Notes under the pieces: model-generated
What the model saw: only the letters and a program-made list of their open reading frames with translations
Told to the model about the DNA's origin: nothing
Database searches by the model: none
Assembly: GCA_017307915.1 (NCBI GenBank)
Contig: JAFKGG010000364.1
Location: 9,980-73,979 of the forward strand
Length of the DNA stretch: 64,000 nucleotides
DNA from: Burkholderiales bacterium
Lineage (GTDB): Bacteria > Pseudomonadota > Gammaproteobacteria > Burkholderiales > Burkholderiaceae_E
Direction of reading: 5' to 3'
In this document: positions 8,801 through 23,445 of the stretch, piece by piece
How the letters are laid out: the number at the start of each line of letters is the position of its first letter
Position numbering within the stretch: the stretch's first letter is position 1
Program-made: the position numbers and the translations under genes

Positions 8801-10033
8801 CTATTTGGTCTGCGCCATCGTCGCCCGCAGATCCTGCCGCTCGAGCAGCCATGACACGGCCAGGCCGGCCAGCAGTCCCCAGAACGGCGCGCCGATGTCC
8901 AGGATCGTCTTGTCCGACACGGTCACCAGAAAGGTGATCAGCGCACCCAGCGTGAAGCGCCCGGCAAACGCCGTCACGAACGAAGTCTGCAGCACGCGCA
9001 GCATGGCCAGACCGGCCAGCGCCGCGATGAAGGCGGGCGGCGTGGCCAGCATCAGCCGCGTGAACAAGGGCGACAGCAGGCCGAAGGCCAGTGCCAGCAG
9101 CCCCACCACCAGGCCTCCGGTGTAATGCTGCTCGCGCGGCCCCGACGACGCCAGGATCGCGTTGGTCGGGCCGGTCAGGCAGGTCGACACGGTACCGACC
9201 ATCGCGGTCAGCATCGAGCCCAGGCCACAGGCGATGGTCACCGCGTTGACCGGCGCATCGTGACCAGCCGCCTTCAACACCGCCACCCCCTGACCGTTCT
9301 GCACCACCAGCACGGTGATCGCCAAGGGCACGACCAGCTCCAGCATCGCCGGCCACGACCACTGCGGCGATTGCAGCTCGGGCCGCGCCAGCACTGCGGT
9401 GGTCGCCATGTCGGGCGCGAAGCGCCCGACCAGCACGATCGCCAGAATCCCAACCAGCATGGCGCCGATCATCGGCGGCACGCGCCGCCCCAGACTCGGC
9501 AAGGCGCTGAGCACGATGAACACCAGCACCATCGGCACGGCGACGCCAGGGTCTTTATGCAGCGAATCGATCAGATCGGTGCCGAAGCGCAAAAAAACGC
9601 CGGCCACCATGCCCATCACGATCGGCATCGGCACCACCTGCATCGCGCGCCGCACCCATCCCGAGAAGCCCAGCAACAGCATCAACGCGCCGGTGGCAAT
9701 GAAAGCGCCGACCACTTCGCTGAACGACAGATGCCCCAGCGCCGGGCCGACCAGCACGGCGCCCGGAATCGTCCAGAAAAATGCCAGCGGCTGCCGGTAG
9801 CGCCAGCAGAACAGCAGCGTGATCAAGCCGTTCAGGAAGAACGAACCGAAGATCCACGATGCGAGCTGCGACTCCGACAACCCGCCCTGCGCACCCACCG
9901 ACAGGATCACTGCCACCGGCCCGGTGGCAGCGAAGACGAAGCCGATCAGGCCATTGACGGCGACGGTCGGGTTGAGGTCGGCGAACGCACCGGACAGCGT
10001 GGTAGGTGGGCGAGCGGCAGGTTCCAGGGGCAT
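8801..10033 (-). CDS. BenE-family benzoate/H+ symporter-like membrane protein
   Basis: AWTxPG-like FFWTIPGA, QNGQGVAVL, CLTGPTNAI and APFWGLLAG motifs; about 12 TM segments. Confidence 0.88.
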   Translation of the reverse strand: MPLEPAARPPTTLSGAFADLNPTVAVNGLIGFVFAATGPVAVILSVGAQGGLSESQLASWIFGSFFLNGLITLLFCWRYRQPLAFFWTIPGAVLVGPALGHLSFSEVVGAFIATGALMLLLGFSGWVRRAMQVVPMPIVMGMVAGVFLRFGTDLIDSLHKDPGVAVPMVLVFIVLSALPSLGRRVPPMIGAMLVGILAIVLVGRFAPDMATTAVLARPELQSPQWSWPAMLELVVPLAITVLVVQNGQGVAVLKAAGHDAPVNAVTIACGLGSMLTAMVGTVSTCLTGPTNAILASSGPREQHYTGGLVVGLLALAFGLLSPLFTRLMLATPPAFIAALAGLAMLRVLQTSFVTAFAGRFTLGALITFLVTVSDKTILDIGAPFWGLLAGLAVSWLLERQDLRATMAQTK

Positions 10034-10202: not shown

Positions 10203-11957
10203 TCAGCCCTGCGTGATGACGTTGACCAGCGCCTGGCGCCGTTCCCGCTGCACCACCTCGAGCGCGCGGCGCAGCGCCGGCAGCAACTGCGCGCGCTCGG
10301 TGACCCGCTCACCATGGCCGCCCGAGGCCTCGATGTAGCGCTCGAAATCGGGCATCGGTTCGAGCGACGACAGCGGCGAAGTGCCATGCGCCTTGGCATG
10401 CTGCGCCGCATGCTGGCCCGGATACATGCCCAGCGCCGCCTGCGACACCGCGCCCCAAGCCATGTTGTTGCACAGCACGGTCAGCACCGGCAGCTCGTGC
10501 ATCGCGGCGGCATGGTGGCATACGGCCGGATTGGCGAACAGATACGAGCCGTCGCCCAGCGCCGCGATGACCACGCGATCCGGTGCCGCCTGCTGCGCAC
10601 CCAGCGCCGCCGGCAATCCCCACCCCAGGCCTGCCGACGCCGACACGTAGAAATAGGTGCCGGGTTCGTCGAAGCACATCTGCTGCGGCGCCAGCGGGTA
10701 TTCGTTGACGACGATCGAATCGGCCGGCCGCACCGCCTGCAGACAGCGCGACAGAAAGGCCTTGGTAATCGCGCCGCCCGCCGCCTCGTCGCGCGCCACC
10801 GCCTGCTCGGTCTGCTGGCGCACCGCCCGGGCAGTGGCTTCGAGCCGCGCGCGGCGTTCGCCGGCGCGTGCCTGCGCGCCTCGCGCCTGCAATGCCCGCG
10901 CCAGCCGCTCGATCAGAGCGGCGGCGGTGGCGGTGATCGACAAATCGGATCGATGCGTACGCACCGGATAACGCGAAAACAAGGGATCGCTGCCGCCATG
11001 CGCCACGAACGCCTCGGGCGACGGCTCACTGCGCGACGGCACCCACGGCCCTTCGCATTCCAGGAACAGCAGCGCATCGGCCTGCGCGAACACCGCCTTG
11101 GTCTCATGCCCCAGGTGCAGCGGATGGCTGGCCGGAAAGTTGACGAAGCGCGCGCGCGTCTCGGCCACGCCGATGCCGAAGCGTTCAGCCAGATCGGCCA
11201 GCAGCGCCACCGTGGCCGGATCGGCACCGCTCGATTCGCAGACGATCACCGGATGACGCGCCTCGTCGAACACCTGCGCCAGCCGCGCCAGCGCCGCCTC
11301 GTCGGGCTGCGGCGCGGTCGGCACCGCCACCGGCCGGCCGGCCGCGGCGCCCGGCAGCGACTGCGCCAGCACTTCGCGCGGCAGGCTCAGATACACCGGC
11401 GCGCGTGGATGCGCCATCGCGATGCCGAACGCGCGATCGACGATCTCATCGACATTGGAACCATCGCGCAGCTCGTAGTCCCATTTGACCAGCTCGCGCA
11501 GCATCGCGCCCTGGTCGAACATCTCCTGGCCCCAATGGATCTCGCTGTTGCGCGCGCCGAGCCGGCCGTCTTCGAACAGCGGCGTGCGGCCCGCGGTGAG
11601 CAGCATCGGCACCTGGCCACGCGCCGCGTTCATCAGGCCGCAAACGGCATTGGCCGTGCCCACGCTCACGTGCAGTATCACCGCCTGCATGCGCCCCGAC
11701 ACCATGTAGTGGCCGTGCGCCATGCCGATCGCCAGGTTCTCATGCGTGGCGATCACCGGGTGCGGATACAACTGCGCCGCCGCCGCGCCCGCCTTGGCAT
11801 AGGCCTCGACGATCGGTGCCGTGTCGGTGCCCGAACCGACGTAGAAGCAATCGACGCCCTGTGCCTTCAAACGCCGCAGGAAGCGCTCGGCGGCCGAATG
11901 GCCGTCCGCTTCGCCGGCGACCGGTTGCGCCTGCATCGTCGTCATCTCGTTCTTCAT
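10203..11957 (-). CDS. Thiamine pyrophosphate-dependent enzyme (acetolactate synthase / decarboxylase superfamily)
   Basis: GSGTD, HENLAIGMAHG, TPP motif GDGSY...NN; GAGGAG SD before ATG 11957. Confidence 0.9.
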   Translation of the reverse strand: MKNEMTTMQAQPVAGEADGHSAAERFLRRLKAQGVDCFYVGSGTDTAPIVEAYAKAGAAAAQLYPHPVIATHENLAIGMAHGHYMVSGRMQAVILHVSVGTANAVCGLMNAARGQVPMLLTAGRTPLFEDGRLGARNSEIHWGQEMFDQGAMLRELVKWDYELRDGSNVDEIVDRAFGIAMAHPRAPVYLSLPREVLAQSLPGAAAGRPVAVPTAPQPDEAALARLAQVFDEARHPVIVCESSGADPATVALLADLAERFGIGVAETRARFVNFPASHPLHLGHETKAVFAQADALLFLECEGPWVPSRSEPSPEAFVAHGGSDPLFSRYPVRTHRSDLSITATAAALIERLARALQARGAQARAGERRARLEATARAVRQQTEQAVARDEAAGGAITKAFLSRCLQAVRPADSIVVNEYPLAPQQMCFDEPGTYFYVSASAGLGWGLPAALGAQQAAPDRVVIAALGDGSYLFANPAVCHHAAAMHELPVLTVLCNNMAWGAVSQAALGMYPGQHAAQHAKAHGTSPLSSLEPMPDFERYIEASGGHGERVTERAQLLPALRRALEVVQRERRQALVNVITQG

Positions 11958-12161
11958 GGGCTTGCTCCTCGTTTCGGTCCCGTTTGCGCCGGACCTGTCT
12001 CTTGTCATTGGCCACTGCTTGTCGATCAGCACGAATGATAGGCCGACTTCGGCGCACGATCATGCCGACGCGGCAAGATTGACGCGCAAATAGTTCAGAA
12101 CCTGCGGCTGGAGGGCAAAGTTCGCCACGCGGCGGCGAGCCCGCCGCTCAGGCGATCAGGC

Positions 12162-12506
12162 TCAATGACTGATCTGCCAGGGGCGGCGCCCGGTGAACGG
12201 GCGGCTGCCGTCGGCCAACCGCAGCGTGTTCTTACTGCCCTTGCCCGGCACACAGCAACTGCAGCCGCCGCCGTGCCGGCTTGCCCGGTAATCGGCCAGG
12301 CTGCGCGGCTCTGCCGCGCTGCGCTCGTTGATCGCATGCGCCTGCCGGCTTTGCGCCGACAGGCCAGCCAGCATCGGCATCGCAAAGATCTCGCGCGCCG
12401 AGGCCGTGCCGCAACTCGGGCAGGCGCAGAGCGCGTTGCGCTCGGCCAGCGGCCGGATCGCTGAAAAGCCGCCGCAGGCGGCGCATCGATAATCGTAGGT
12501 GGGCAT
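12162..12506 (-). CDS. fmdB: FmdB-family zinc-ribbon protein
   Basis: MPTYDYRCAACG...CPSCG, C-terminal RPWQISH; directly after fmdA. Confidence 0.9.
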   Translation of the reverse strand: MPTYDYRCAACGGFSAIRPLAERNALCACPSCGTASAREIFAMPMLAGLSAQSRQAHAINERSAAEPRSLADYRASRHGGGCSCCVPGKGSKNTLRLADGSRPFTGRRPWQISH

Positions 12507-12530
12507 GGCGGCGGCTTTCGGTGATGGGTA

Positions 12531-13763
12531 TCAGAGCAGATCAGGCGACATCGGTATGTCGACGCCCGGCTCGATGAACTTGACCGGCCCCGCGGAACTG
12601 GGGCGGATGTCGAAATCGAAGATCTGGGTCGGCAGCCACAGCGTCGCGCAGGCATTGGGAATGTCGACGACGCCGCTGATGTGGCCTTGCACCGGCGCGG
12701 TGCCCAGAATCGCGTACGCCTGCGCCCGCGTGTAGCCGAACTTGGTCAGATATTCGATCGCGTTCAGGCATGCCTGCCGATAGGCGACGTGTACGTCGAG
12801 ATAGTGCTGTTTGCCGTACTCGTCGACCGATATGCCTTCAAAGATCAGATAGTCGTTGTACTGCGGCGTGATCGGGCTCGGCTTGAATATCGGGTTCTTG
12901 ATGCCGTACTTGGCCATGCCGCCCTTGATCAGGTCCACCTTCATGTGTACCCAGCCGGCCATCTCGATGGCGCCGCAGAAGGTGATCTCGCCGTCGCCCT
13001 GCGAGAAGTGCAAATCGCCGACCGACAAACCGGCGCCGTCAACGTACACCGGAAAATAGATCTTCGAGCCACGCGACAGATCCTTGATGTCGCAATTGCC
13101 GCCGTGCTCACGCGGCGGCACCGTGCGCGCGCCGGAGGCGGCAGCTTGCGCCCTGGCCTCGCCCTTGAGCTTGCCCATGTGCGCGGTGCCCGCAAACGGC
13201 GGATTGGCCAGCGGCGGCACGCGCTCAGGCGCGGTGGCGATGAAGTCCACTTCGCGCTTGTTCCAGGTCTCCAGAAGCTTCGCATCCGGCAGGCAGCCGA
13301 TCAGCCCCGGATGGATCAGGCCGGCGAACTGCACGCCCGGCACGTGGCGCGAACTCGTGTACAAGCCGTGGAAATCCCAGATCGATTTCTGCGCCAGCGG
13401 AAAATGCTCGGTCAGGAAACCGCCGCCGTTCTTCTTCGAGAAAAAGCCGTTGAAGCCCCACAGGCTGTCGGGCTTGGCGCCGACGTCGAGCAGGTCGACC
13501 ACCAGCAGGTCGCCCGGCTCGGCGCCGGTCACGCCGACCGGCCCCGACAGGAAATGCACGGTGCTGAGGTCGACGTCGCGCACGTCATCGGCGCAGTCGT
13601 CGTTCTTGATATAGCCGCCGGTCCAGTCGTAGGTTTCCAGCACGAAATCGTCGCCCGGCCTGACCCAGCAGGCCATTGGAATGTCCGGGTGCCAGCGGTT
13701 GTGAATCAGCTCGTTGTCATAGGGGGATTGCTTCAGGTCGACCTTGATCAGCGTTTCAGGCAT
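12531..13763 (-). CDS. fmdA: Formamidase (acetamidase/formamidase family)
   Basis: HNRWHPDIP, PREHGGNCDIK, GDLHFSQGDGEITFCGAIE, VDIPNAC. Confidence 0.96.
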   Translation of the reverse strand: MPETLIKVDLKQSPYDNELIHNRWHPDIPMACWVRPGDDFVLETYDWTGGYIKNDDCADDVRDVDLSTVHFLSGPVGVTGAEPGDLLVVDLLDVGAKPDSLWGFNGFFSKKNGGGFLTEHFPLAQKSIWDFHGLYTSSRHVPGVQFAGLIHPGLIGCLPDAKLLETWNKREVDFIATAPERVPPLANPPFAGTAHMGKLKGEARAQAAASGARTVPPREHGGNCDIKDLSRGSKIYFPVYVDGAGLSVGDLHFSQGDGEITFCGAIEMAGWVHMKVDLIKGGMAKYGIKNPIFKPSPITPQYNDYLIFEGISVDEYGKQHYLDVHVAYRQACLNAIEYLTKFGYTRAQAYAILGTAPVQGHISGVVDIPNACATLWLPTQIFDFDIRPSSAGPVKFIEPGVDIPMSPDLL

Positions 13764-13808
13764 GGCACACCTCGGTAGGCATCGGACAGGTTTCGGAATC
13801 GATAGCGT

Positions 13809-14498
13809 TCAGACCGACAGGTACTGCTTGATTCGCGCGACGTCGGTCTGCGCGCGCGCGCTTTCATGGACCAGCCGGCCGCCTTCGATCACGAACAGCC
13901 GGTCGGCGACATCCATCGCAAAACTGAGTACCTGTTCGGAAACGACGATCGTGATCCGGCGCATCTTGCGGATCTCGTTGAGCGCGCGGGCAATGTCCTT
14001 GATGATCGACGGCTGGATGCCCTCGGTGGGCTCGTCCAGCAGCAGCACCTTCGGGTTGGTGACCAGCGCACGCGCGATGGCCAGTTGCTGCTGCTGGCCG
14101 CCCGACAGGTTGCCGCCCCGGCGGCGGCGCATGTCGAACAGCACCGGAAACAGCGCATAGATTTCGTCGGGAATGCGCTTGTCCCTCGCGTTCTCGAGCC
14201 CGGTCTGGATGTTCTCTTCGACGCTCAAGGTCGGAAAGATCATCCTGCCCTGCGGTACGTAGGCCAGCCCCGCCGCAACGCGCCGATAGCTTTCGTCGCG
14301 ACTCAGGTCGCGGCCGGCCACCTCGATGCGGCCCGACTTGACCGGCACGATGCCCATCAAGGTCTTGAACAGCGTCGTCTTGCCCATGCCGTTGCGGCCC
14401 ATGATGGCCACGGTTTCGTTGGCCTCGGCCGCGAATGAAATGCCATGCAGCACTTCGCTCTGGCCGTAGCTGGCGAACAGGTCGGTGACTTTCAGCAT
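13809..14498 (-). CDS. urtE: Urea/amide ABC transporter ATP-binding subunit
   Basis: GRNGMGKT, LSGGQQQQ, LLLDEPTEGIQPSII. Confidence 0.94.
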   Translation of the reverse strand: MLKVTDLFASYGQSEVLHGISFAAEANETVAIMGRNGMGKTTLFKTLMGIVPVKSGRIEVAGRDLSRDESYRRVAAGLAYVPQGRMIFPTLSVEENIQTGLENARDKRIPDEIYALFPVLFDMRRRRGGNLSGGQQQQLAIARALVTNPKVLLLDEPTEGIQPSIIKDIARALNEIRKMRRITIVVSEQVLSFAMDVADRLFVIEGGRLVHESARAQTDVARIKQYLSV

Positions 14499-14525
14499 CG
14501 TTCGGTCCTTCGCTCGCCGGTTCGA

Positions 14526-15269
14526 TCAGTGGCCCAGGTAGACGTCGATCACCTTCGGATCGGCCTGCACTTTTTCCATCGAGCCTTCGGCCAGGATCTT
14601 TCCCTGGTGCATGACGGTGACCTTGTGCGCGATGGCCTTGACGAAGTCCATGTCGTGCTCGATGACGATCATCGAGCGGTTCTGGCAGATGCGCCTGAGC
14701 AGGTCGGCGGTCAGCTCGCGCTCGCGCACGCTCATGCCGGCGATCGGTTCATCGAGCATCAGCAGCTCGGGGTCTTGCATCAGCAGCATGCCGATCTCCA
14801 GCCATTGCTTCTGGCCATGAGACAGCAGACCCGCTTCGGTCTGCAGTGCATCGACCAGGCCGATTTCCTCGGCCACCTGGTGCACGCGCTGCCGAACATC
14901 GTCGGTACACTTGAACGCCAGTGCGCCGAACACGCCGCGCCCGCGCGGGAACGACACCTCCAGGTTCTCGAACACATTCAGGTTCTCGTAGATCGATGGC
15001 GTCTGGAACTTGCGGCCGATGCCGGCACGCACGATCTGGTGCTCGGGCAGCTTGGTAAGCTCCAGATCATTGAAGCGAATGCGGCCGGCGCTGGCGCGCG
15101 TCTTGCCGCAGATCAGGTCCAGCAAGGTGGTCTTGCCGGCGCCGTTCGGGCCGATCACGACGCGCAGCTCGCCCTTGTCGATGTACAGGTTCAGCGCATC
15201 GATGGCCTTGAAACCGTCGAACGAGACGGTGAGGTCTTCGATGGCCAGCACCATGCCGGGGTGGGTCAT
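14526..15269 (-). CDS. urtD: Urea/amide ABC transporter ATP-binding subunit
   Basis: GPNGAGKT, GIGRKFQTP, LSHGQKQWLEIGM, EHDM. Confidence 0.94.
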   Translation of the reverse strand: MTHPGMVLAIEDLTVSFDGFKAIDALNLYIDKGELRVVIGPNGAGKTTLLDLICGKTRASAGRIRFNDLELTKLPEHQIVRAGIGRKFQTPSIYENLNVFENLEVSFPRGRGVFGALAFKCTDDVRQRVHQVAEEIGLVDALQTEAGLLSHGQKQWLEIGMLLMQDPELLMLDEPIAGMSVRERELTADLLRRICQNRSMIVIEHDMDFVKAIAHKVTVMHQGKILAEGSMEKVQADPKVIDVYLGH

Positions 15270-15270
15270 G

Positions 15271-16575
15271 TCAGGCACCTCGCGTCGAAGGCATCGAACC
15301 GATCGGCGGATTGGCACCGGTCGCCGGGCTCGACTGTGCCGCGCCAGCCGATACCGCAGAAACCGCAACCGGTGGCGGCGCAGCCTCGGCGTCAGCCGCA
15401 TTGGCACGCCGCTTCGCCAACCATGGCTTCACGTGCGATTCCCACAGCCCCGCCAACCCATTGGGGAAGGCCATCACCACACCGATGAACAGCGCCGCCA
15501 TCAGGAACAGCCACAGGTCGGGAAAGCTTTCCGAGAAATAGGTCTTGCCGAAGTTCACCAGCAGCGCACCATAGACCGCGCCGACCAGCGACATGCGCCC
15601 GCCCACCGCCGCAAAGATCACCATCTCGATCGACGGCACGATGCCGACGAACGACGGCGACATGAAGCCGACCTGCAGCGTGAACAGCGCGCCGCCGATG
15701 CCGGACAGGGCCGCCGCGAAGCAGAACACGAACACCTTGAACATCGACACGTCGTAGCCGGAAAAGCGCACGCGGTCTTCCTTGTCGCGCATCGCCAGCA
15801 GCAGCGTGCCCAGCTTGCTCTTTTGCACCCAGCGGCACAGCACGATGGCCGCCAGCAGCAGGCCGGCGCAGACGAAATACAGGATGGTGCGCGCGCCGTC
15901 GGTGCGGATGTCCCAGCCCAGCATCGTCTTCAGATCTGTGATGCCGTTGACGCCGCCCGTGTAACCCTGCTGGCCGATGATCAGCACCGACAAGATCAGC
16001 GCCACCGCCTGCGTGATGATCGCGAAATACACGCCGCCCACGCGTCGCTTGAACATCGCGTAGCCGACGATGAAGGCCAGCAGCGCCGGCACCGCCACGA
16101 CGGCGATCAGCGCCAGCGGCAGCGACTTGAACGGTTCCCACCACAGCGGCAGCGCAGTGACCTGGTTCCAGTCCATGAAGTCGGGAATGCCCGGCGTCGA
16201 CTGGATCTTCGTGCTTTCGGGGTCCGAGGCTTCCAGCTTCAGGAACATCGCCATGCAGTAGCCGCCCAGGCCGAAGAAGACGCCCTGACCGAGGCTCAGC
16301 ACGCCGCCGTAGCCCCACAGCATCACCAGGCCGATCGCCACGAAGCCGTAGGTCAGGTACTTGCCGACCAGGTTCAGCCGGAAGACGTCGAGCGTCAGCG
16401 GCAAGACGATAAGGATCACTGCCGCCAGCCCCAGCAGACTGCCGAACTCATGACGCAGCAGCCACTGCCACGGGCCAGGCCGCGCCGGGGCTGCGGCGTC
16501 CATCGTGTGCGGTGCCGCGCCCGGTGCAGGCACGGCGCCGGTTGCCGCGCTTGCGGCCTTGTCGATCGTGCTCAT
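15271..16575 (-). CDS. urtC: Urea/amide ABC transporter permease
   Basis: WGYGGVLSLGQGVFFGLGGY, RDKEDRVRFSGY, AVGGR. Confidence 0.94.
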   Translation of the reverse strand: MSTIDKAASAATGAVPAPGAAPHTMDAAAPARPGPWQWLLRHEFGSLLGLAAVILIVLPLTLDVFRLNLVGKYLTYGFVAIGLVMLWGYGGVLSLGQGVFFGLGGYCMAMFLKLEASDPESTKIQSTPGIPDFMDWNQVTALPLWWEPFKSLPLALIAVVAVPALLAFIVGYAMFKRRVGGVYFAIITQAVALILSVLIIGQQGYTGGVNGITDLKTMLGWDIRTDGARTILYFVCAGLLLAAIVLCRWVQKSKLGTLLLAMRDKEDRVRFSGYDVSMFKVFVFCFAAALSGIGGALFTLQVGFMSPSFVGIVPSIEMVIFAAVGGRMSLVGAVYGALLVNFGKTYFSESFPDLWLFLMAALFIGVVMAFPNGLAGLWESHVKPWLAKRRANAADAEAAPPPVAVSAVSAGAAQSSPATGANPPIGSMPSTRGA

Positions 16576-16606
16576 CGCCGTAGCTCCCGATTGAGTGAAA
16601 TCCTGT

Positions 16607-17521
16607 TCATCGCCGCACCTTGGCCGCGAACAAGCCCTGCGGGCGAATCATCAGAATCGTGATCACCAGCAACAAGGTCAGCACGCGCGCCATCGAGCCG
16701 GTCAGGAAGAATTCCGAGATCGATTGCGTCTGCGCAATGCCGAACGCCGACGCCACCGTGCCGAGCAGGCTGGCCGCGCCGCCGAAGGTGACGACCAGGA
16801 ACGCATCGACGATGTACAGCGAACCGCTGGTAGGCCCGGTCGAGCCGATGGTCGTGAATGCGGCGCCAGCCACGCCGGCGATGCCGCAGCCGATGGCGAA
16901 GGTCAGCCGATCGGTCTGGCGGGTATTGATGCCGGTGGCGTTGGCCATCACGCGGTTGCTGACGGTGGCGCGCACGCGCAGCCCCCAGCGCGAGCGATAC
17001 AGCGCCAGCAGCACCAGCCCGGTGACCAGCAGCGTCAACGCCATCACGAACATGCCATTGATCGGGATGTCCAGCCCCTCGGCCGGCGCCCACGAGCCCA
17101 TCAGCCAGTCGGGCAGCGTCGGGCTCACTTCCTTGGCGCCGAAAGTCGAGCGGAACACCTGCTGCATGCCCAGCGACAGGCCCCAGGTGGCCAGCAGCGT
17201 GTCGAGCGGGCGCCGGTACAAGTGGCGGATCAGCGCCCATTCGGCCAGCCAGCCGACGCAGAACGCGATCACGAACGCAACAGCGATGGCCACCGGAAAA
17301 TAGACCTGCATCAGCGCCGGCGCCAAGGTCTCGGTCAGCGTCGAGAACAGGTAGATCGTGTAGGCGCCGATCGTCATGAACTCGCCGTGCGCCATGTTGA
17401 TCACGCCCATCTGGCCGAAGATGATCGCCAGGCCCAGCCCCATCAGCAGCAACACGCTGAACAGGCTCAATCCGGCAAAGCCCTGCATCAGCGCGACGTT
17501 CATCATCTCGTTCAGTTCCAT
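16607..17521 (-). CDS. urtB: Urea/amide ABC transporter permease (short form)
   Basis: GLAIIFGQMGVINMAHGEF, RPLDTLLATWG. Confidence 0.93.
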   Translation of the reverse strand: MELNEMMNVALMQGFAGLSLFSVLLLMGLGLAIIFGQMGVINMAHGEFMTIGAYTIYLFSTLTETLAPALMQVYFPVAIAVAFVIAFCVGWLAEWALIRHLYRRPLDTLLATWGLSLGMQQVFRSTFGAKEVSPTLPDWLMGSWAPAEGLDIPINGMFVMALTLLVTGLVLLALYRSRWGLRVRATVSNRVMANATGINTRQTDRLTFAIGCGIAGVAGAAFTTIGSTGPTSGSLYIVDAFLVVTFGGAASLLGTVASAFGIAQTQSISEFFLTGSMARVLTLLLVITILMIRPQGLFAAKVRR

Positions 17522-17545
17522 CGCAGATCTCCGGCACGAAAGGCG

Positions 17546-17639
17546 CGCTCCCGAACAGGGAGCGATGCACGGAATCGGTGCGGGGCCGGTGGTGCCAAGC
17601 CGGCACCCGGCGCCGCAACGGCGGCGGCCGTGAGCCGCC
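17546..17639. other. Cluster of three short hairpins between urtA and urtB
   Basis: CGCTCCC/GGGAGCG (17546-17564), GGTGCC/GGCACC (17591-17607), GGCGGC/GCCGCC (17623-17639). Confidence 0.5.
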
Positions 17640-17704
17640 AGGCGCGGTCGCGCGCCGCTGCAGGACCGTTCCGACCCCGCGCCGATCCGGTCATGCGAGC
17701 ATGC

Positions 17705-18961
17705 TCACTGATAGCCTTTGGGGAACGGATCGGGCTCGATCAGGTTCGGCGATTCGGCCACCACCTTGAACTGCCCGTCGGGCTGCGCCAGGCCGATGCG
17801 TGTCTTGCTCCACAAGTGATGATTCTTGTGGACCTTCACGTAGCCCTCGGGCGCATCCTTGAACTCGATGTCGGGCGAGGCTGCGGCCACCTTGTCGATG
17901 TCGAAGCTGCCGGCCTTTTCCACCGTGAGCTTCCACAGCCAAGGCCCGAGATAAGCGGCCTGCGTCACGTCGCCGATCACCGCCTTCGGCCCATACTTCG
18001 CCTTGAAGGCGTCGACGAACTTCTTGTTGTTCGCGTTGTCCAGCGATTGGAAATACTTCATCGCCGCGTAGAAGCCCTGGATGTTCTCGCCGCCGATGCC
18101 CAGCACCTCGTCTTCGGTCACCGAGATGGTCAGCAGGAATTGCTTGTCGGACGTGAGACCGGCCGCCTTCAACTGCTTGTAGAACGCCACGTTCGAGCCG
18201 CCCACCACGATCGCGTAGATGCAATCGGGCTTGGCGATCTTGATCTTGTTGATCAGCGAGTTGAAGTTGGTATGGCCCAGCGGGTAGTACTCTTCACCGA
18301 CCACCTTGCCCTTCAGGAAGTTCTCGACGTGCTTGCGCGCGATCTTGTTCGAGGTGCGCGGCCAGATGTAATCCGAGCCGATCAGGAAGAAGGACTTGGC
18401 TTTCTTCTCCTTGGCGGCCCAGTCCAGCCCCCAGATGATCTGCTGCGTGGCTTCCTGGCCGGTGTAGATCACGTTCTTGGACTGTTCCAGACCTTCGTAG
18501 AAGGTCGGGTAGTACAGCATCCCGTTTTCCTTCTCGAAGATCGGCAACACGGCCTTGCGCGAGGCTGAGGTCCAGCAGCCGAACACCGCCGCCACCCGGT
18601 CGTTGACCAGCAGCTTCTTCGACTTCTCGGCGAAGGTCGGCCAATCCGACGCGCCGTCTTCCTTGATCACCTTGATTCGGCGGCCCAGCACGCCGCCGGC
18701 GGCGTTGATCTGGTCGATGGCGAGCTGCTCGGCCTGGATCGAGCCGGTTTCCGAGATCGCCATCGTGCCAGTGGCCGAATGCAGCTGGCCCACCGTCACT
18801 TCGGTATCGGTCACGGCCAGCTTGGTCGTGTTCACCTTGGCGGTGGGAAACTGCTGCGCCAGTGCCAGGCTGGACAGCCCGGCCAGCGGGACAACAGACA
18901 AGCCCTGCACCAGCCGGCGGCGGTGGGCGAAGAACGGATCGTGCGGATCGGACGGGTTCAT
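17705..18961 (-). CDS. urtA: Urea/short-chain amide ABC transporter substrate-binding protein (UrtA/FmdD-like)
   Basis: Twin-Arg-like RRRLVQG leader, LHSATGTMAISE, FGCWTSASRKAV, YPTFYEGLE, GSDYIWPR. Confidence 0.94.
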   Translation of the reverse strand: MNPSDPHDPFFAHRRRLVQGLSVVPLAGLSSLALAQQFPTAKVNTTKLAVTDTEVTVGQLHSATGTMAISETGSIQAEQLAIDQINAAGGVLGRRIKVIKEDGASDWPTFAEKSKKLLVNDRVAAVFGCWTSASRKAVLPIFEKENGMLYYPTFYEGLEQSKNVIYTGQEATQQIIWGLDWAAKEKKAKSFFLIGSDYIWPRTSNKIARKHVENFLKGKVVGEEYYPLGHTNFNSLINKIKIAKPDCIYAIVVGGSNVAFYKQLKAAGLTSDKQFLLTISVTEDEVLGIGGENIQGFYAAMKYFQSLDNANNKKFVDAFKAKYGPKAVIGDVTQAAYLGPWLWKLTVEKAGSFDIDKVAAASPDIEFKDAPEGYVKVHKNHHLWSKTRIGLAQPDGQFKVVAESPNLIEPDPFPKGYQ

Positions 18962-19058
18962 CTCGTATCTCCGGAAGCGGCGGCGTGGCCGTATGAGGTC
19001 GATGGATGGCGGCTCGGTTGTTGCAATGCATCATGCGGATCGCCGCCGCCGCGCGAAA

Positions 19059-19074
19059 TACGTCAATTGACGTA
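19059..19074. promoter_or_regulatory. Perfect 16-bp palindrome, probable operator in the urtA / sensor-kinase divergent region
   Basis: TACGTCAATTGACGTA, about 100 bp upstream of urtA ATG. Confidence 0.7.
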
Positions 19075-19244
19075 CTGCGCGGTGCGCACCGCGCTCGCAC
19101 AATCGCGAAGCCAAGTCATCGAAGGCGGGGCGGTCGGCTGCTGCGCTGACGGTGCGCATGCGGCAGTAGCAGCCTTGTCGCACTGCGTCAGGCATGGGCC
19201 TTGCGTGCCCTGCGGCCGCAACGAACCCTCAACAGGTGCGATGA

Positions 19245-22200
19245 ATGGATGCGCCGCTCGACCGCTCCAGACCGGTGCAGCGGATCATCAAGATCCGCCG
19301 CGACTACAACCGCTGGGTTGCCGACGAAACGCTCGAAGACTATGCGCTGCGTTTCACGCCGCGCAGCTTCCGCAAGTGGAGCCCCTTTCGCGTCGCCAAC
19401 ACGGCGTTCGGCGCAGTTTCGTTCCTGGCGCTGGAAGCGATCGGCGCAACCATTACGCTGAGCTACGGTTTCACCAACGCGATGTGGGCGATCGCCGTGG
19501 TGAGCCTGGTGATCTTCCTGACCGGCCTGCCGATCGCCTATCGCGCGGCGCGCCACGGGCTCGACATGGACCTGCTGGCGCGCGGCGCCGGCTTCGGCTA
19601 CCTGGGCTCGACCATCACCTCGCTGATCTACGCCAGCTTCACGTTCATCTTCTTCGCGCTCGAAGCGGCGATCATGGCGCAGGCCTTCGAGCTGTGGTTC
19701 GACGTGCCGCGCCCGGTGGGCTATCTGCTGAGCGCGCTGGCGGTGATCCCGCTGGTCACGCACGGCATCACGCTGATCTCGCGGCTGCAGCTCTGGACGC
19801 AGCCGCTGTGGCTGGTACTGATGCTGCTGCCGTTCATCGCGGTGGCCGTGAAGGATCCCGGCGCATTCGCTGAATTCGCGTCGCTGAACGGCCGCAGCGA
19901 TGAAGGCGACGGTTTTTCGTGGGTGGCGTTCGGCGCGGCCTCGGCCGTAGCCGCGGCGCTGATCGGGCAGATCGGCGAACAGGTCGATTTCCTGCGTTTC
20001 ATGCCCGAGCGCACGCCGAGTAACCGCTGGCGCTGGTGGCTGGCAGTGATCGTCGCCGGCCCGGGATGGATCGTGCCCGGCGCGCTGAAGATGGCGGGCG
20101 GCGCGCTGCTCGCATTCCTGGCCCTGCAGCACGAAATACCGGTGGAACGCGCGATCGAGCCGACGCAGATGTACCTGACCGGCTTCGAATACGCGGTCGG
20201 GCCCGGTACGGCGGCGGTGCTGCTCACCGGCATCTTCGTCATCGTGTCGCAGATCAAGATCAACGTGACCAACGCCTACGCCGGGTCGCTGGCCTGGTCG
20301 AACTTCTTCGCGCGACTTACGCACAGCCACCCGGGCCGCGTCGTCTGGCTCGGCTTCAATGTGCTGATCGCCGTCATGCTGATGGCGATGGGCGTATTCG
20401 AAGCCCTGGAGAAAGTGCTCGGTCTGTATGCGCACCTGGCGGTGGCCTGGGTCGGCGCGCTGGTCGCCGATCTGGTCATCAGCAAGCCGCTGGGGCTGTC
20501 GCCGCAGCGCATCGAGTTTCGCCGCGCTTATCTGTTCGACATCAATCCATCGGGCTTCGGTGCCATGCTGCTCGGGTCGAGCCTGTCGATCGCCGCCTAT
20601 GCCGGCCTGTTCGGCGACGCGCTGCAGGCAGCCTCGACCGCCATCGCGCTGGGCGTGCCGCTGCTGGCCGCGCCGCTGATCGCGTTGGCAACCGGCGGAC
20701 GCTGGTCGATCGCGCGCACGCCTACCGATTTCGGCGCCCGTCATCGCAGCCTGCGCTGCGTCGTCTGCCGCAACCGCTTCGAGGCCGACGACATGGCCGG
20801 CTGCCCGGCTTACGACGGCGCCATCTGCTCGCTGTGCTGCACGCTGGAAGCGCGCTGCGGCGATCGCTGCAAACCCGACACGCAGGCTTCCGAACGACTG
20901 GCGCGACTGCTGACGCGCTGGTTGCCGGCGGGCGCCACGCCGGCCATGCTGCGGCGAATCGGCCAGTTCGCATTGGTGCTGGGCGGGATGGTTACCGTGT
21001 TCAGCGCGATACTGTGGCTGCTATACGCGCAGGAACGGCTGCATCTGGAAGCCGATGCCGCGCTGCGCGTCGGCGATCTCGGCGCGATGTTCGTCAAGGT
21101 CTTCGCCGGCCTGCTGCTGCTGGCCGCGGTAGCCGCCTGGTGGCTGGTGCTGGTCAATGAAAGCCGGCGCGTGGCACAGCAGGAATCCGACCGGCAGAAC
21201 CTGTTGCTGCAAAGAGAGATCGACGCACACCGCCGCACCGATGCGCTGCTGCAGCGGGCCAAGGAGCTGGCCGAAAGCGCCAACCTGGCCAAGAGCCGCT
21301 TTCTCACCGGCATGAGCCATGAGATGCGCGCGCCGCTGAACAGCATCCTCGGCTATTCACAGCTACTGCTGCGCGACAAGACGGTGGCAAGCGGCGCGCG
21401 TGAATCGATCGACACCATCCATCGCAGCGGCCAGCACCTGGCCAGCCTGGTCGACGGCTTGCTCGAACTGTCGCGCATCGAAGCCGGCAAGTTGCGCATC
21501 GAGCAGCAACCGCTCGACTTGAACGACTTCTTCGCACAGATCGTGCGCATGTTCGAGCCGCTGGCGCGCGACAATGGCCTGTCGTTCCGCTACGAGCTGG
21601 CCGGCACCTTGCCGGCGCGCGTCAACGCCGATCCCAAGCGCCTGCGGCAGATCCTGATCAACCTGTTGGGCAATGCGATCAAGTTCACCGAACGCGGCGG
21701 CGTCTCGCTGCGCGTGCGCTATCAGCGCGAGATCGCACACATCGAAGTGGCCGACACCGGCGTGGGCATCGCCGATGCCGACCAGCCGCGCGTATTTCAG
21801 CCGTTCGAGCGGCTGTCGAATCGACCCGGCGTCGAAGGCATGGGCCTGGGGTTGACGATCACGCGGCTGCTGGTCGACCTGATGGGTGGCGACATCCGTT
21901 TGTGGAGCCGGCCCGGCGAGGGCAGCCGCTTCACCGTTCGCGTCTATCTGCCGATGTTGCCGTCGGTGAGTCTGGCGCCGCCCGAGCGCGAAATCATCGG
22001 CTACGCCGGAGCAAGGCGCGAACTGCTGGTGGTCGACGATGATCTCGATCACCGGGCGCTGATGCGCGCACGGCTCGAACCGCTGGGCTTTGCGATCAGC
22101 GAAGCCGGCAACGGCACCGCCTGCCTGGCGGCGTTGGCGCGGCAGCGGCCCGACCTGGTGCTGCTCGACATCGGCCTGCCCGACATGAGCGGCTGGGAGG

Positions 22201-22655
22201 TTTGCGAGCGGCTGCACGAGCAGGGCGCGACGGCAGCGCAACGCCCGCCGGCCATTGTCATCGTATCGGCCAACGTGCACGAGAACAACGAGGCGCAGCG
22301 CGCCCGGTTCAGCGTGCACGGCTTCATCGCCAAACCGGTCAGCGAACGCGATCTGTTCGATGCGATCCAGCAGGCGCTGAGGCTGCAGTGGCGGCGCGCG
22401 GCGCCCGAGGCGGCATCGGCGGCCCTGGCCGAGCAGGCGCAGACCAGCCCGGTGTCACCCGACGTGGCACGCGAACTGCTGGCCTTGTCGGCCGGCGGCT
22501 ATCCGCGCGCGCTGCGTGCACGCCTCGACGAACTGGGCGAAGAATCAGTGGCCGCCGCGACCTGGGTGGCCCGCCTGATCCCGCTGCTGGAAACCGACCG
22601 TGACCGCCTGCACGCCGCCTTGAACGACATCCTGCATGAACGAACCCGTGCCTGA
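19245..22655 (+). CDS. Hybrid sensor histidine kinase with N-terminal NCS1/APC-like permease domain, 8-Cys motif, HisKA, HATPase and REC
   Basis: DETLEDYALRFTP start, about 12 TM segments, SQIKINVTNAYAGSLAWSNFF; CxxC...C...CxxCC...C...C; SHEMRAPLN, NLLGNAIKFT, DTGVGI, GMGLGL; REC DD...D...K. Confidence 0.9.
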   Translation: MDAPLDRSRPVQRIIKIRRDYNRWVADETLEDYALRFTPRSFRKWSPFRVANTAFGAVSFLALEAIGATITLSYGFTNAMWAIAVVSLVIFLTGLPIAYRAARHGLDMDLLARGAGFGYLGSTITSLIYASFTFIFFALEAAIMAQAFELWFDVPRPVGYLLSALAVIPLVTHGITLISRLQLWTQPLWLVLMLLPFIAVAVKDPGAFAEFASLNGRSDEGDGFSWVAFGAASAVAAALIGQIGEQVDFLRFMPERTPSNRWRWWLAVIVAGPGWIVPGALKMAGGALLAFLALQHEIPVERAIEPTQMYLTGFEYAVGPGTAAVLLTGIFVIVSQIKINVTNAYAGSLAWSNFFARLTHSHPGRVVWLGFNVLIAVMLMAMGVFEALEKVLGLYAHLAVAWVGALVADLVISKPLGLSPQRIEFRRAYLFDINPSGFGAMLLGSSLSIAAYAGLFGDALQAASTAIALGVPLLAAPLIALATGGRWSIARTPTDFGARHRSLRCVVCRNRFEADDMAGCPAYDGAICSLCCTLEARCGDRCKPDTQASERLARLLTRWLPAGATPAMLRRIGQFALVLGGMVTVFSAILWLLYAQERLHLEADAALRVGDLGAMFVKVFAGLLLLAAVAAWWLVLVNESRRVAQQESDRQNLLLQREIDAHRRTDALLQRAKELAESANLAKSRFLTGMSHEMRAPLNSILGYSQLLLRDKTVASGARESIDTIHRSGQHLASLVDGLLELSRIEAGKLRIEQQPLDLNDFFAQIVRMFEPLARDNGLSFRYELAGTLPARVNADPKRLRQILINLLGNAIKFTERGGVSLRVRYQREIAHIEVADTGVGIADADQPRVFQPFERLSNRPGVEGMGLGLTITRLLVDLMGGDIRLWSRPGEGSRFTVRVYLPMLPSVSLAPPEREIIGYAGARRELLVVDDDLDHRALMRARLEPLGFAISEAGNGTACLAALARQRPDLVLLDIGLPDMSGWEVCERLHEQGATAAQRPPAIVIVSANVHENNEAQRARFSVHGFIAKPVSERDLFDAIQQALRLQWRRAAPEAASAALAEQAQTSPVSPDVARELLALSAGGYPRALRARLDELGEESVAAATWVARLIPLLETDRDRLHAALNDILHERTRA

Positions 22656-23445
22656 ACCGAACGCCGCATCGCGGCACAGCGGCGCGCAAAGCCCGGAGCG
22701 CGCGCTCGACGTATTGGTCGTCGACGACTGCGCCGACAGCCGCGAGCTGCTGCGCCGCGAGCTCGAAGCCACCGGCATGCGCGTGCGCACGGCCGCCGAC
22801 GGCGCAACCGCATTGCGCGAAATCGAACGCGAGCGGCCCGAGGCGCTACTGCTCGACGTGCTGATGCCCGGCCTCGACGGCTTCCAGACCTGCGAACGGC
22901 TGCGCCGCAGCGACGCCGAGCTGCCGGTCGTGTTCATGACCGGGCTGGGCGAAACCGAACACATCGTGCGTGGCTTCGAAGCCGGCGCCAACGACTATGT
23001 GACCAAGCCGGTTTCGATCCCGGAGGTGATCGCGCGCCTGGCCTCGCACGCACGCACTGCGCGCCTGGTGCGAGCCACGCGCGAAGCGCTGCATGCCGAA
23101 GACCGCGCCCTGCTCGAACTCGCGGCACGGCACGGCGCCGAGCGCGATACCGGCCTGTACGTCGTGCCGGCGAGTGGTGCGACCGGCGTAGGTGCGACCG
23201 GCGTAGGTGCGGCCGCCGTCGGCGACGGTGACGCGCCGGCCGCGGCACTGCCGATACCGCTCACCGCACGCGAAAGCGAAGTGCTGCTGTGGGTGGCGCG
23301 CGGCAAGACCAACCGCGACATCGCCGAGATCCTCGGCATGAGCCCGCGCACCGTCAACAAGCACCTGGAACACGTGTTCGAGAAACTCGGCGTGGAAACC
23401 CGCACGGCCGCCGCGGCGGCAGCGCGGCGGCTGAAGCTGGCGTGA
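22636..23445 (+). CDS. Response regulator (REC + LuxR/NarL-type HTH)
   Basis: VVDD...LLDVLMPGLDG...VTKP; LTARESEVLLWVARGKTNRDIAEILGMSPRTVNKHLEHVFEKLGV. Confidence 0.92.
   Translation: MNEPVPEPNAASRHSGAQSPERALDVLVVDDCADSRELLRRELEATGMRVRTAADGATALREIERERPEALLLDVLMPGLDGFQTCERLRRSDAELPVVFMTGLGETEHIVRGFEAGANDYVTKPVSIPEVIARLASHARTARLVRATREALHAEDRALLELAARHGAERDTGLYVVPASGATGVGATGVGAAAVGDGDAPAAALPIPLTARESEVLLWVARGKTNRDIAEILGMSPRTVNKHLEHVFEKLGVETRTAAAAAARRLKLA
23176..23220 (+). repeat. In-frame 15-bp tandem repeat in the response-regulator linker
   Basis: GGTGCGACCGGCGTA x2 + GGTGCGGCCGCCGTC, encoding GATGV-GATGV-GAAAV. Confidence 0.9.

Follow-up and report, generated by a model that had tools for sequence, protein, structure and literature searches.

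To our knowledge, bacterial sensing of urea or formamide as such, as opposed to overall nitrogen status, has been little defined except in the case of AmiC/AmiR of Pseudomonas aeruginosa. In that system an amidase operon is controlled by a sensor dedicated to short-chain amides, a role like the one we propose below for the hybrid kinase P0001. The means would differ, however: AmiC, a soluble protein with the fold of periplasmic binding proteins, works by sequestering an antiterminator, and the system lacks a membrane sensor, a kinase and a DNA-binding regulator, unlike that of P0001.

In architecture, P0001 resembles another group of proteins. CbrA, CrbS (MxtR) and RpuS, described from Pseudomonas, Vibrio and Sinorhizobium, likewise carry a complete LeuT-fold transporter N-terminally to a histidine kinase, and CrbS is a hybrid kinase as well (PMC5715377, PMC9100948, PMC13022988). 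In these SLC5/STAC kinases, too, the last transporter helix leads straight into a small cytoplasmic domain; the STAC domain of CbrA docks beneath its SLC5 domain (PMC13022988). A nitrogen-compound carrier fold serving as membrane sensor, with kinase or diguanylate cyclase output, is also known from Ks-Amt5 and Sd-Amt1, which are akin to the P0001 family in this respect (PMC5764959, PMC11152129) but differ in ligand and are built on the trimeric Amt channel, a fold unrelated to LeuT. To the known sensor kinases with a fused transporter, the P0001 family adds a variant whose sensor is NCS1-like. Our literature search found no characterised member of the family and no experiment on it, in keeping with the first-pass annotation, which knew of no mechanistic study of an NCS1-type sensor kinase. 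In genome papers on Dechloromonas and Ectopseudomonas the kinase-regulator pair is placed beside urt or fmd genes, as annotation only. Two other candidates from the literature were set aside: GrtK/GrtR, the ammonia sensor of Burkholderia glumae (PMC12918730), is unrelated, its kinase being of PilS type, and the paper on the S-component transceptor does not extend to the fold at issue.

The P0001 gene lies in the window, by which we mean the whole 64-kb stretch of DNA analysed, and its open frame translates into 1136 amino acids. The parts of the gene are as follows.

19245–22655, plus strand: hybrid sensor histidine kinase gene, P0001 (open reading frame, translation, domain matches)
19383–20696, plus strand: 12-helix LeuT-fold NCS1-like sensor domain, residues 47–484 (AF2, Foldseek, hhalign, conservation)
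20748–20876, plus strand: cytoplasmic eight-Cys domain of two beta-hairpins and a short helix, residues 502–544 (conservation, secondary structure, fold matches)
20940–21287, plus strand: TM13-TM14 hairpin and linker, residues 566–681 (hydropathy, AF2)
21288–21947, plus strand: HisKA, residues 682–748, and HATPase_c, residues 796–901 (Pfam, E 8.7e-19 and 4.8e-27)
22026–22370, plus strand: fused receiver, Response_reg, residues 928–1042 (Pfam, E 3.8e-21; motif positions)
22470–22652, plus strand: conserved helical C-terminal tail, residues 1076–1136 (alignment)

The order of a permease-like membrane domain, eight cysteines, two more transmembrane segments, HisKA, HATPase and REC had been read from the letters in the first-pass annotation, and the reading frame, hydropathy and Pfam confirm it. 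Twelve hydrophobic helices fall within residues 54–484, and two further ones occupy residues 575–593 and 619–637. P0001 differs from CbrA, CrbS and RpuS in several respects. The transporter domain is NCS1-like instead of SLC5, a beta-rich domain with eight cysteines stands in place of the four-helix STAC bundle of CbrA and CrbS, an additional transmembrane hairpin follows it, and PAS is missing. No Pfam family, SLC5 (SSF) and STAC included, was detected in residues 1–500 or 480–680, and the post-transporter domain is rich in beta structure and cysteine. The linked genes differ as well, being concerned with amide and urea use in the case of P0001 and with acetate, histidine and pyruvate in the case of the SLC5/STAC kinases.

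The membrane domain escapes ordinary sequence searches. Residues 1–660 match no Pfam family at E up to 10, residues 1–500 do not match PF02133 even at that threshold, and a PDB search with the single N-terminal sequence (residues 1–660) returned zero matches; the profile-based PDB search of the same residues gave CRIPT as its sole match, at a chance-level E of 2.4, and was disregarded. The AlphaFold (AF2) model of residues 1–660, in contrast, is of high quality (pLDDT 91.1, pTM 0.90) and has the 12-helix LeuT fold of NCS1 proteins. Its TM1 is broken at residues 60–61, between modelled helices 47–59 and 62–74, a break shared with CodB (7QOA) and Mhp1 (2JLN, 4D1A, 2X79). These two proteins are also the best Foldseek matches (E 5e-10 to 1e-9, TM-score by target 0.67–0.79). 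Though Pfam is blind to residues 1–660, profile comparison by hhalign ties the N-terminus to NCS1, with 98.6% for a paralog from the same genome, which itself scores 35.4 bits on PF02133 (cut-off 23.5), and 72.5% for Escherichia coli CodB over TM1-TM6. As modelled, the N-terminal domain of P0001 has a LeuT-type transporter fold whose nearest matches are the NCS1 proteins Mhp1 and CodB. These computations support both the transporter fold and the NCS1-like assignment suggested earlier.

P0001 and CodB share LLAR-x-FG-xx-GS before TM3 and DF-x-RF after TM6, and the latter motif anchors the TM6 register of our CodB alignment. The substrate of NCS1 proteins is held in a conserved sandwich of Trp on TM3 and Phe or Trp on TM6 (PMC9379551). 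Neither of these is the rule in the family: by the alignment, CodB Trp108 corresponds to Phe136 (Phe in 52 of 66 members) and CodB Phe204 to Leu239 (Leu in 62 of 66). The Na2 site of CodB has the TM8 hydroxyl ligands Thr278 and Thr279 (PMC9379551), whose positions in a motif-based TM8 alignment (NA-x-YA...L..N), with a register uncertain by one residue, are taken by K338/I339 or I339/N340; neither register shows a Thr-Thr pair, and Lys338, which is invariant, occupies this position or the adjacent one. A TM8 alignment to CodB made by an automatic pairwise method was discarded as unreliable. Further differences from both CodB and Mhp1 are the lack of a PF02133 match, the C-terminal Cys domain and the signalling outputs. 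What the family does preserve is an invariant polar core of E140, D248, R251, K338, N340, N343 and S348.

Pfam and hydropathy reveal no other external sensor domain in P0001. Apart from the permease domain, P0001 exposes a single loop to the periplasm, the stretch of about 25 residues between TM13 and TM14; no plausible external sensor is thus left but the permease domain, and the idea that its fold acts as the receptor gains computational support. Whether the domain also transports is a separate matter. It could be an active amide or urea permease, with the kinase reading transport flux or cytoplasmic ligand, and histidine uptake by the SLC5 domain of CbrA offers a precedent (PMC7096432, PMC13022988). 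Five core residues (E140, D248, K338, N340 and N343) are identical between the fused sensors and stand-alone, probably transporting, relatives in amidase operons, which speaks for such a true transceptor. We nevertheless regard it as unlikely: the neighbouring operon already provides a high-affinity ABC importer, so that a second carrier would be unneeded, and the N-terminal module of P0001 is elsewhere fused to HK, GGDEF/EAL and SpoIIE outputs, a variety which is the behaviour of a dedicated sensor.

The cysteines of the domain following TM12 are C505, C508, C520, C528, C531, C532, C538 and C542, arranged as CVVC-x11-C-x7-CSLCC-x5-C-x3-C. The first-pass annotation had placed this motif at 20757–20876. 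Its start is right, as the C505 codon begins at nucleotide 20757; the end is not, for the C542 codon ends at 20870 and the rest encodes the K-P that follows. All eight cysteines are invariant across 79 relatives in spite of a mean column identity of only 45%, so the pattern is not due to chance, and the 11/7/5 spacing is kept in 195 of 201 family sequences. The domain is just as invariant in stand-alone permeases of about 550 amino acids, which possess neither the kinase nor the TM13-14 hairpin. In three separate clusters, such permease-plus-Cys relatives immediately precede amidase genes; five others (P0191, P0260, P0192, P0217 and P0252) lie on short contigs with uninformative context. Presence of the Cys domain in stand-alone permeases beside amidases argues that it belongs to the permease lineage, and a relay specific to the kinase is not borne out. 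Because the domain occurs where no kinase is present, it may serve the permease itself or the structure of the protein in the first place; it might dock on the permease as STAC does in CbrA.

Fold comparison of the isolated domain gave weak matches. The best by VIA is the FYVE domain 2yw8 (Z 3.6, rmsd 1.8 A over 41 residues), and the best Foldseek E-value is 0.3. Roughly eight in ten of the top weak matches are two-zinc cross-brace or treble-clef domains (FYVE, RING, LIM, PHD, ZZ); the remaining ones include ribosomal proteins and U-box domains. Of the two possibilities named at first, a Zn or an Fe-S module, the predicted fold weakly favours the former, and the domain probably binds two zinc ions. 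Eight invariant cytoplasmic cysteines including a CC pair, together with zinc-type matches no better than Z 3.6 and E 0.3, could also mean an Fe-S cluster or redox-active thiols, by which the kinase would respond to redox, oxygen or iron status along with the amide. This appears quite improbable to us, as the spacing is unlike a classical 4Fe-4S or 2Fe-2S motif, the matched folds are mostly of the zinc type, and the domain is kept in simple permease-amidase operons, where a redox input would have no obvious purpose.

Beyond the Cys domain, TM14 is modelled as one helix, residues 606–659, reaching the end of the model, and residues 660–681 join it to the DHp region. Three Pfam domains above their cut-offs, the phospho-acceptor His692 and the receiver Asp975 characterise P0001 as a hybrid histidine kinase of the HisKA type. 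N, G1 and G2 boxes are present in the HATPase_c region, and the receiver motifs are canonical (DD, Asp975, Ser, Lys1030). The H-box reads S-H692-E-M-R-A-P, and the absence of Thr remarked upon earlier is real in P0001; it is not family-wide, given that Thr occupies the fifth position in 90 of 141 H-boxes, Ser in 31 and Ala in 19. Loss of Thr as a family trait is thereby ruled out, and the Ala is, by this comparison, a lineage variant.

As a rule, hybrid kinases depend on an Hpt step. Pfam finds no Hpt domain in P0001. The C-terminal tail was considered as a degenerate Hpt and rejected, having no conserved His, no Pfam family and an hhalign probability of 0.3% against Hpt. An Hpt is fused in 5 of 60 family representatives, and the Hpt domains of this genome all sit within large proteins. 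With no fused Hpt and none on a small protein, the phosphate route to the regulator is uncertain.

Next, we consider the surroundings of the gene. These comprise a putative target operon, divergent from P0001 as described earlier, the regulator and the intervening control elements.

12162–18961, minus strand: putative target operon (Pfam, open reading frames, common gene order), consisting of the next five lines
17705–18961, minus strand: FmdD/UrtA-type binding protein (Pfam, open reading frame)
16607–17521 and 15271–16575, minus strand: permeases (Pfam, open reading frames)
14526–15407 and 13809–14498, minus strand: ATPases (Pfam, open reading frames)
12531–13763, minus strand: formamidase (Pfam, open reading frame)
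12162–12506, minus strand: FmdB zinc ribbon (Pfam, open reading frame)
19010–19025: second sigma-54-like candidate
19059–19074, no strand assigned: perfect 7-2-7 palindrome TACGTCA-AT-TGACGTA, candidate operator of P0002 (conservation)
19190–19205, plus strand: sigma-54-like GG-N10-GC element (AGGCAT-N5-TTGCG), 40 nt upstream of the start codon of P0001
22636–23445, plus strand: response regulator P0002, REC and GerE/LuxR-type HTH, with Asp74 (Pfam, E 1.9e-29 and 1.6e-18)

The start of P0002 overlaps the stop codon of the upstream kinase gene by 20 nt. With REC and GerE both above the Pfam cut-offs, P0002 is a regulator of the NarL/FixJ (LuxR) type, whose members bind inverted heptamers. The palindrome, its candidate operator, lies some 100 nt before the start codon of fmdD and is the only such site within the window. 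At least 12 of its 14 positions are matched in 28 of 30 fmdD-kinase spacers, compared with 1 of 1500 shuffles. Sigma-54-like elements scoring at least 17 are present on the kinase strand of 25 of the 30 spacers, against 20% of shuffles, most of them 35–140 nt before the kinase start. An 18-bp GC palindrome at 19077–19094 was dropped, related spacers showing no conservation of it, and so were NtrC-like GCAC-N-GTGC sites, found in only 5 of 30 spacers.

Gene context, phylogenetic profile and the conserved candidate operator all connect the kinase and the LuxR-type P0002 with the fmdD-ABC/formamidase/fmdB operon. A UrtA-type gene occurs within 10 kb in 56 of 80 related loci, identical fmdD...fmdA-fmdB order in 26 of the 80, and urease genes in 6 of the 10 remaining full-length loci. 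Among 301 sampled genomes, the sensor is present in 23 of the 24 with a formamidase ortholog. All these co-occurrence counts stem from related genomes and are not independent. The link to amide and urea genes proposed from the outset has thus proved strong.

The family itself splits into formamidase-linked clades, which include P0001, and a urea-linked clade (urt, urease). They are distinguished by Ile66, Ala271 and Ile276 in the former versus Val, Gly and Val in the latter. Members of the clade of P0001 are formamidase-linked in 17 of 17 cases, and no urease alpha gene was found in its genome (94% complete). For these two reasons, "amide" fits better than "urea" in the original notion of a membrane amide/urea sensor; comparative evidence makes formamide or another short amide the likelier ligand of P0001. 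That the ligand is instead a nucleobase, hydantoin, allantoin or a general nitrogen-status signal we consider very improbable, since, even if the nearest solved relatives transport cytosine and hydantoins and nearby Atlas clusters bear automatic names such as allantoin or purine-cytosine permease, the sandwich residues are replaced and the genes that accompany the family are those of formamidase, urt, urease and amidases instead of nucleobase or allantoin genes.

It seems likely to us that P0001 and P0002 form a two-component system inducing the divergent operon for short-chain-amide (formamide) uptake and formamidase, with a small-amide-binding NCS1-like domain as its sensor. This divergent NCS1 branch would bind, and possibly also carry, a small amide, held in a pocket to which TM1, TM3, TM6 and TM8 contribute invariant polar residues, and binding would shift the rocking-bundle equilibrium of the LeuT-fold domain. 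The eight-Cys domain, as a counterpart of STAC in CbrA, may feel the change at the cytoplasmic face of the permease, and the signal would then run through the TM13-14 hairpin, the continuous TM14 helix and the linker to His692. Phosphate would pass to Asp74 of the regulator, and Asp975 of the fused receiver could act as a sink or brake, as no Hpt domain is present. Phosphorylated P0002 would bind the 7-2-7 palindrome and activate the fmd operon. The promoter of the kinase-regulator operon is probably of the sigma-54 type, which would place it under nitrogen control.

With at least 8000 clusters at 90% identity, the family is large; of 301 genomes sampled from the phylum, 33 carry it, and it adjoins the genes of urea and amide utilisation. 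On a wider scale we would suggest, tentatively and with some doubt, that the NCS1-like domain and the two-zinc Cys domain constitute a portable small-amide sensing module, mounted on kinases, c-di-GMP enzymes and PP2C phosphatases, and that this module is the dedicated receptor for formamide and urea still missing from the picture in many Proteobacteria. Residues 66, 271 and 276 might then set formamide or urea specificity through pocket size, the Cys domain might be a zinc-based analogue of STAC, and the TM8 lysine might replace sodium. If true, the transceptor idea would embrace, beyond SLC5 and Amt folds, an NCS1-like fold that brings its own coupling domain. The formamidase- and urea-linked clades, differing in few conserved residues, offer a natural pair for the study of ligand specificity in a LeuT-fold receptor, and the set of sensor, regulator and candidate operator might serve as a urea or formamide biosensor.

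The hybrid sensor kinase P0001 (1136 aa) is encoded by the plus-strand ORF at 19245-22655. Its architecture as described in the first-pass annotation was confirmed in every item: ORF, polytopic permease-like part, eight-cysteine motif, two further TM segments, kinase and receiver domains, and divergence from the amide genes. The protein and its surroundings comprise the following features.

P0001 residues 54-484: 12 helices (hydropathy)
P0001 residues 505-542: eight cysteines, after the 12 helices
P0001 residues 575-593 and 619-637: two further helices (hydropathy)
P0001 residues 682-748: HisKA (Pfam)
P0001 residues 796-901: HATPase_c (Pfam)
P0001 residues 928-1042: receiver domain (Pfam)
22636-23445, plus strand: REC and LuxR-type regulator gene (P0002), overlapping the kinase stop codon
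Opposite strand: FmdD/UrtA-type binding protein, two permeases, two ATPases, formamidase, FmdB zinc-ribbon ORF
12162-12506, minus strand: FmdB-family zinc-ribbon ORF with N-terminal CxxC...CxxC, directly 3' of formamidase
19010-19025 and 19190-19205, kinase strand: sigma-54-like candidates
19059-19074: perfect 7-2-7 palindrome TACGTCA-N2-TGACGTA, candidate operator
19077-19094: perfect 18-bp GC-rich palindrome, two bases past the 7-2-7 operator

Residues 1-680 matched no Pfam family, even at E up to 10. The loop joining the last two helices has only about 25 residues, and P0001 therefore lacks a separate periplasmic sensor domain. Given the Arg- and Lys-rich N-terminus and the even helix number of the permease part, the cysteine segment should be cytoplasmic.

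The N-terminus had been expected to adopt a transporter fold, and structure prediction and fold search agree with this. An AlphaFold model of residues 1-660, built from an alignment of 66 relatives, reached a mean pLDDT of 91.1 and a pTM of 0.90. In a Foldseek search against the PDB, the first places were taken by Mhp1 (2jln, 4d1a, 2x79) and CodB (7qoa), with E-values of 5e-10 to 4e-8 and TM-scores by target of 0.67-0.79, followed by further LeuT-fold carriers. The bacterium's own genome also encodes a 473-aa stand-alone NCS1 paralog (L002, contig C168, 1483-2904), which passes PF02133 and matches the profile of the 66 relatives with 98.6% probability over 424 aligned columns. This paralog is 31% identical to the sensor, has no cysteine domain and has the TM8 motif Q-x-K...N-x-Y..S in common with it. 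E. coli CodB matches the sensor profile with 72.5% probability across TM1-TM6, and both contain LLAR-x-FG-xx-GS and DF-x-RF motifs.

The residues named for CodB, namely Gly29 and Phe32-Ser34 at the TM1 break, a TM3 Trp, a TM6 aromatic residue and a TM8 Thr-Thr pair (PMC9379551), were mapped onto the sensor by alignment. The TM1 break corresponds to Gly56 and Ser59-Leu61, and the TM3 Trp to Phe136. In 62 of 66 members Leu239 takes the place of the TM6 aromatic residue, which is stated to be conserved throughout NCS1 (PMC9379551). On TM8 the Thr-Thr pair of sodium ligands is lost, and an invariant Lys338 stands at or beside its position, with a TM8 register uncertain by one residue. Polar residues of the pocket helices are invariant or nearly so (Glu64, Glu140, Gln242, Glu245, Gln246, Asp248, Lys338, Asn340, Asn343). 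We read the sensor domain as a divergent branch of NCS1 whose ligand would be small, polar and non-aromatic, and which is probably not coupled to sodium. Within the NCS1 family, the metformin transporter MetT is described as forming its own clade (2026 paper, PMC13390362).

All eight cysteines, around the core ICSLCC, are invariant among 79 sequences with a mean column identity of 45%, and 195 of 201 sequences keep the same spacing. In the model the domain consists of two beta-hairpins and a short helix. Folded alone it has a pLDDT of 76, versus about 93 inside the larger model, a gap compatible with packing onto the permease. Structural matches are weak, with Foldseek E-values of at least 0.3 and VIA Z-scores of at most 3.6 (FYVE domain, rmsd 1.8 A over 41 residues). 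Two-zinc cross-brace and treble-clef domains make up about eight in ten of these weak top matches, with ribosomal proteins and U-box domains among the remainder. This module is not restricted to the kinases: relatives of roughly 520-560 aa that stand alone also have it, stop right after it and lack TM13-14. The cysteine domain is thus part of the permease lineage, and the TM13-14 hairpin is the element that accompanies signalling outputs.

Genomic context links the kinase to amide and urea genes, as had been proposed. An FmdD-type binding protein (about 80% identity), mostly divergent, is found in 34 of 80 loci, 26 of which also contain formamidase and FmdB; the FmdB ORF after formamidase is retained in 25 related formamidase-type loci. 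Downstream of fmdB, the minus strand of the window also encodes a TPP-dependent enzyme at 10203-12032 and a BenE-type transporter at 8801-10033. A true Urt system (about 42% identity) occupies another 22 loci, and the remaining loci with full flanks (n=10) include six with urease genes and one with amidase and allophanate hydrolase. Of 301 genomes sampled across the phylum, 33 carry the sensor; it is present in 23 of 24 genomes with a formamidase ortholog, and 32 of the 33 sensor genomes have a strong UrtA-type match. As the genomes are related, all these counts are purely descriptive.

A tree of 81 N-terminal modules places two formamidase-linked clades (17/17 in the window's clade, 14/16 in the second) apart from one urea-linked clade. 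Since the same bacterial families, e.g. Comamonadaceae, occur on both sides of the split, the clades are paralogous subfamilies. Only eight positions separate them cleanly (I66V, V86T, A271G, I276V, T307N, L369V, F512Y, R571G), the urea-linked clade having the smaller residue at I66V, A271G and I276V. The bacterium's own 94%-complete assembly yielded no urease alpha subunit (PF00449), although it has a Urt-like ABC system. Three stand-alone permease-plus-Cys relatives from separate clusters, 35-46% identical (P0187, P0188, P0265), have an amidase gene directly downstream and GntR, LysR or PucR regulators among their neighbours. Taken together, the locus, genome, clade, urease and stand-alone-amidase evidence favours small amides as the class of ligand and, for P0001, formamide or a short amide like it. 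Of the suggested amide/urea sensor, the amide part fits P0001 better than urea, given its uniformly formamidase-linked clade and the lack of a urease alpha hit in the 94%-complete genome.

The H-box of P0001 indeed reads HEMRAP, without Thr, as first noted. This is no family trait: among 141 H-boxes, Thr holds the fifth position in 90, Ser in 31 and Ala in 19, so the Ala form is a lineage variant. All catalytic residues are present in the fused receiver. P0001 contains no Hpt domain; its conserved helical tail (1076-1136), considered as a candidate, has neither a conserved His nor an Hpt match, and the Hpt domains of its own genome all lie within large proteins. The simplest reading is hence that phosphate would pass straight from His692 to the regulator P0002, with the fused receiver as sink or brake.

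The candidate operator, matched at 12 or more of 14 positions, recurs in 28 of 30 fmdD-kinase spacers versus 1 of 1500 shuffles, and is the sole such site within the 64-kb window. Its 7-2-7 layout of inverted heptamers corresponds to that of NarL-family sites. Some formamidase-type spacers (L021, L044, L082) carry two TACG-N8-CGTA sites at a distance of 22 bp, or roughly two turns of the helix, versus a single copy in the window. Urea-clade loci have variants upstream of urtA, e.g. TACGCCA-N2-TGGCGTA. The adjoining GC-rich palindrome did not recur in the 29 related spacers and could be a chance feature or one peculiar to this locus. On the kinase strand, a sigma-54-like GG-N10-GC element, usually 35-140 nt ahead of the start codon, occurs in 25 of 30 spacers versus 20% of shuffles; its conservation suggests that the sensor operon would be under nitrogen control.

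By mechanism, the closest known systems are the SLC5/STAC kinases CbrA, CrbS and RpuS; the STAC domain of CbrA docks beneath the transporter (PMC13022988). The Amt-fused sensors offer a further comparison (PMC5764959, PMC11152129). P0001, having no Pfam family in its N-terminal part, falls outside both groups. Full-text searches, which covered few subscription journals, found no study of the sensor family. The family is very large: at 90% clustering, all 8000 candidates that were scored matched it (at least 8000 clusters), with 1914 representatives at 50%. Among 60 representatives, the N-terminal module is joined to histidine kinase (45), receiver (37), GGDEF (6), Hpt (5), EAL (5) or SpoIIE (3) outputs, and PAS or GAF domains are also fused to it. 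One member, on a contig of a Bacteroidota-labelled bin titled Chitinophaga pinensis MAG (L060), nests in the tree among betaproteobacterial Sphaerotilaceae sequences; this contig was probably mis-binned rather than transferred across phyla.
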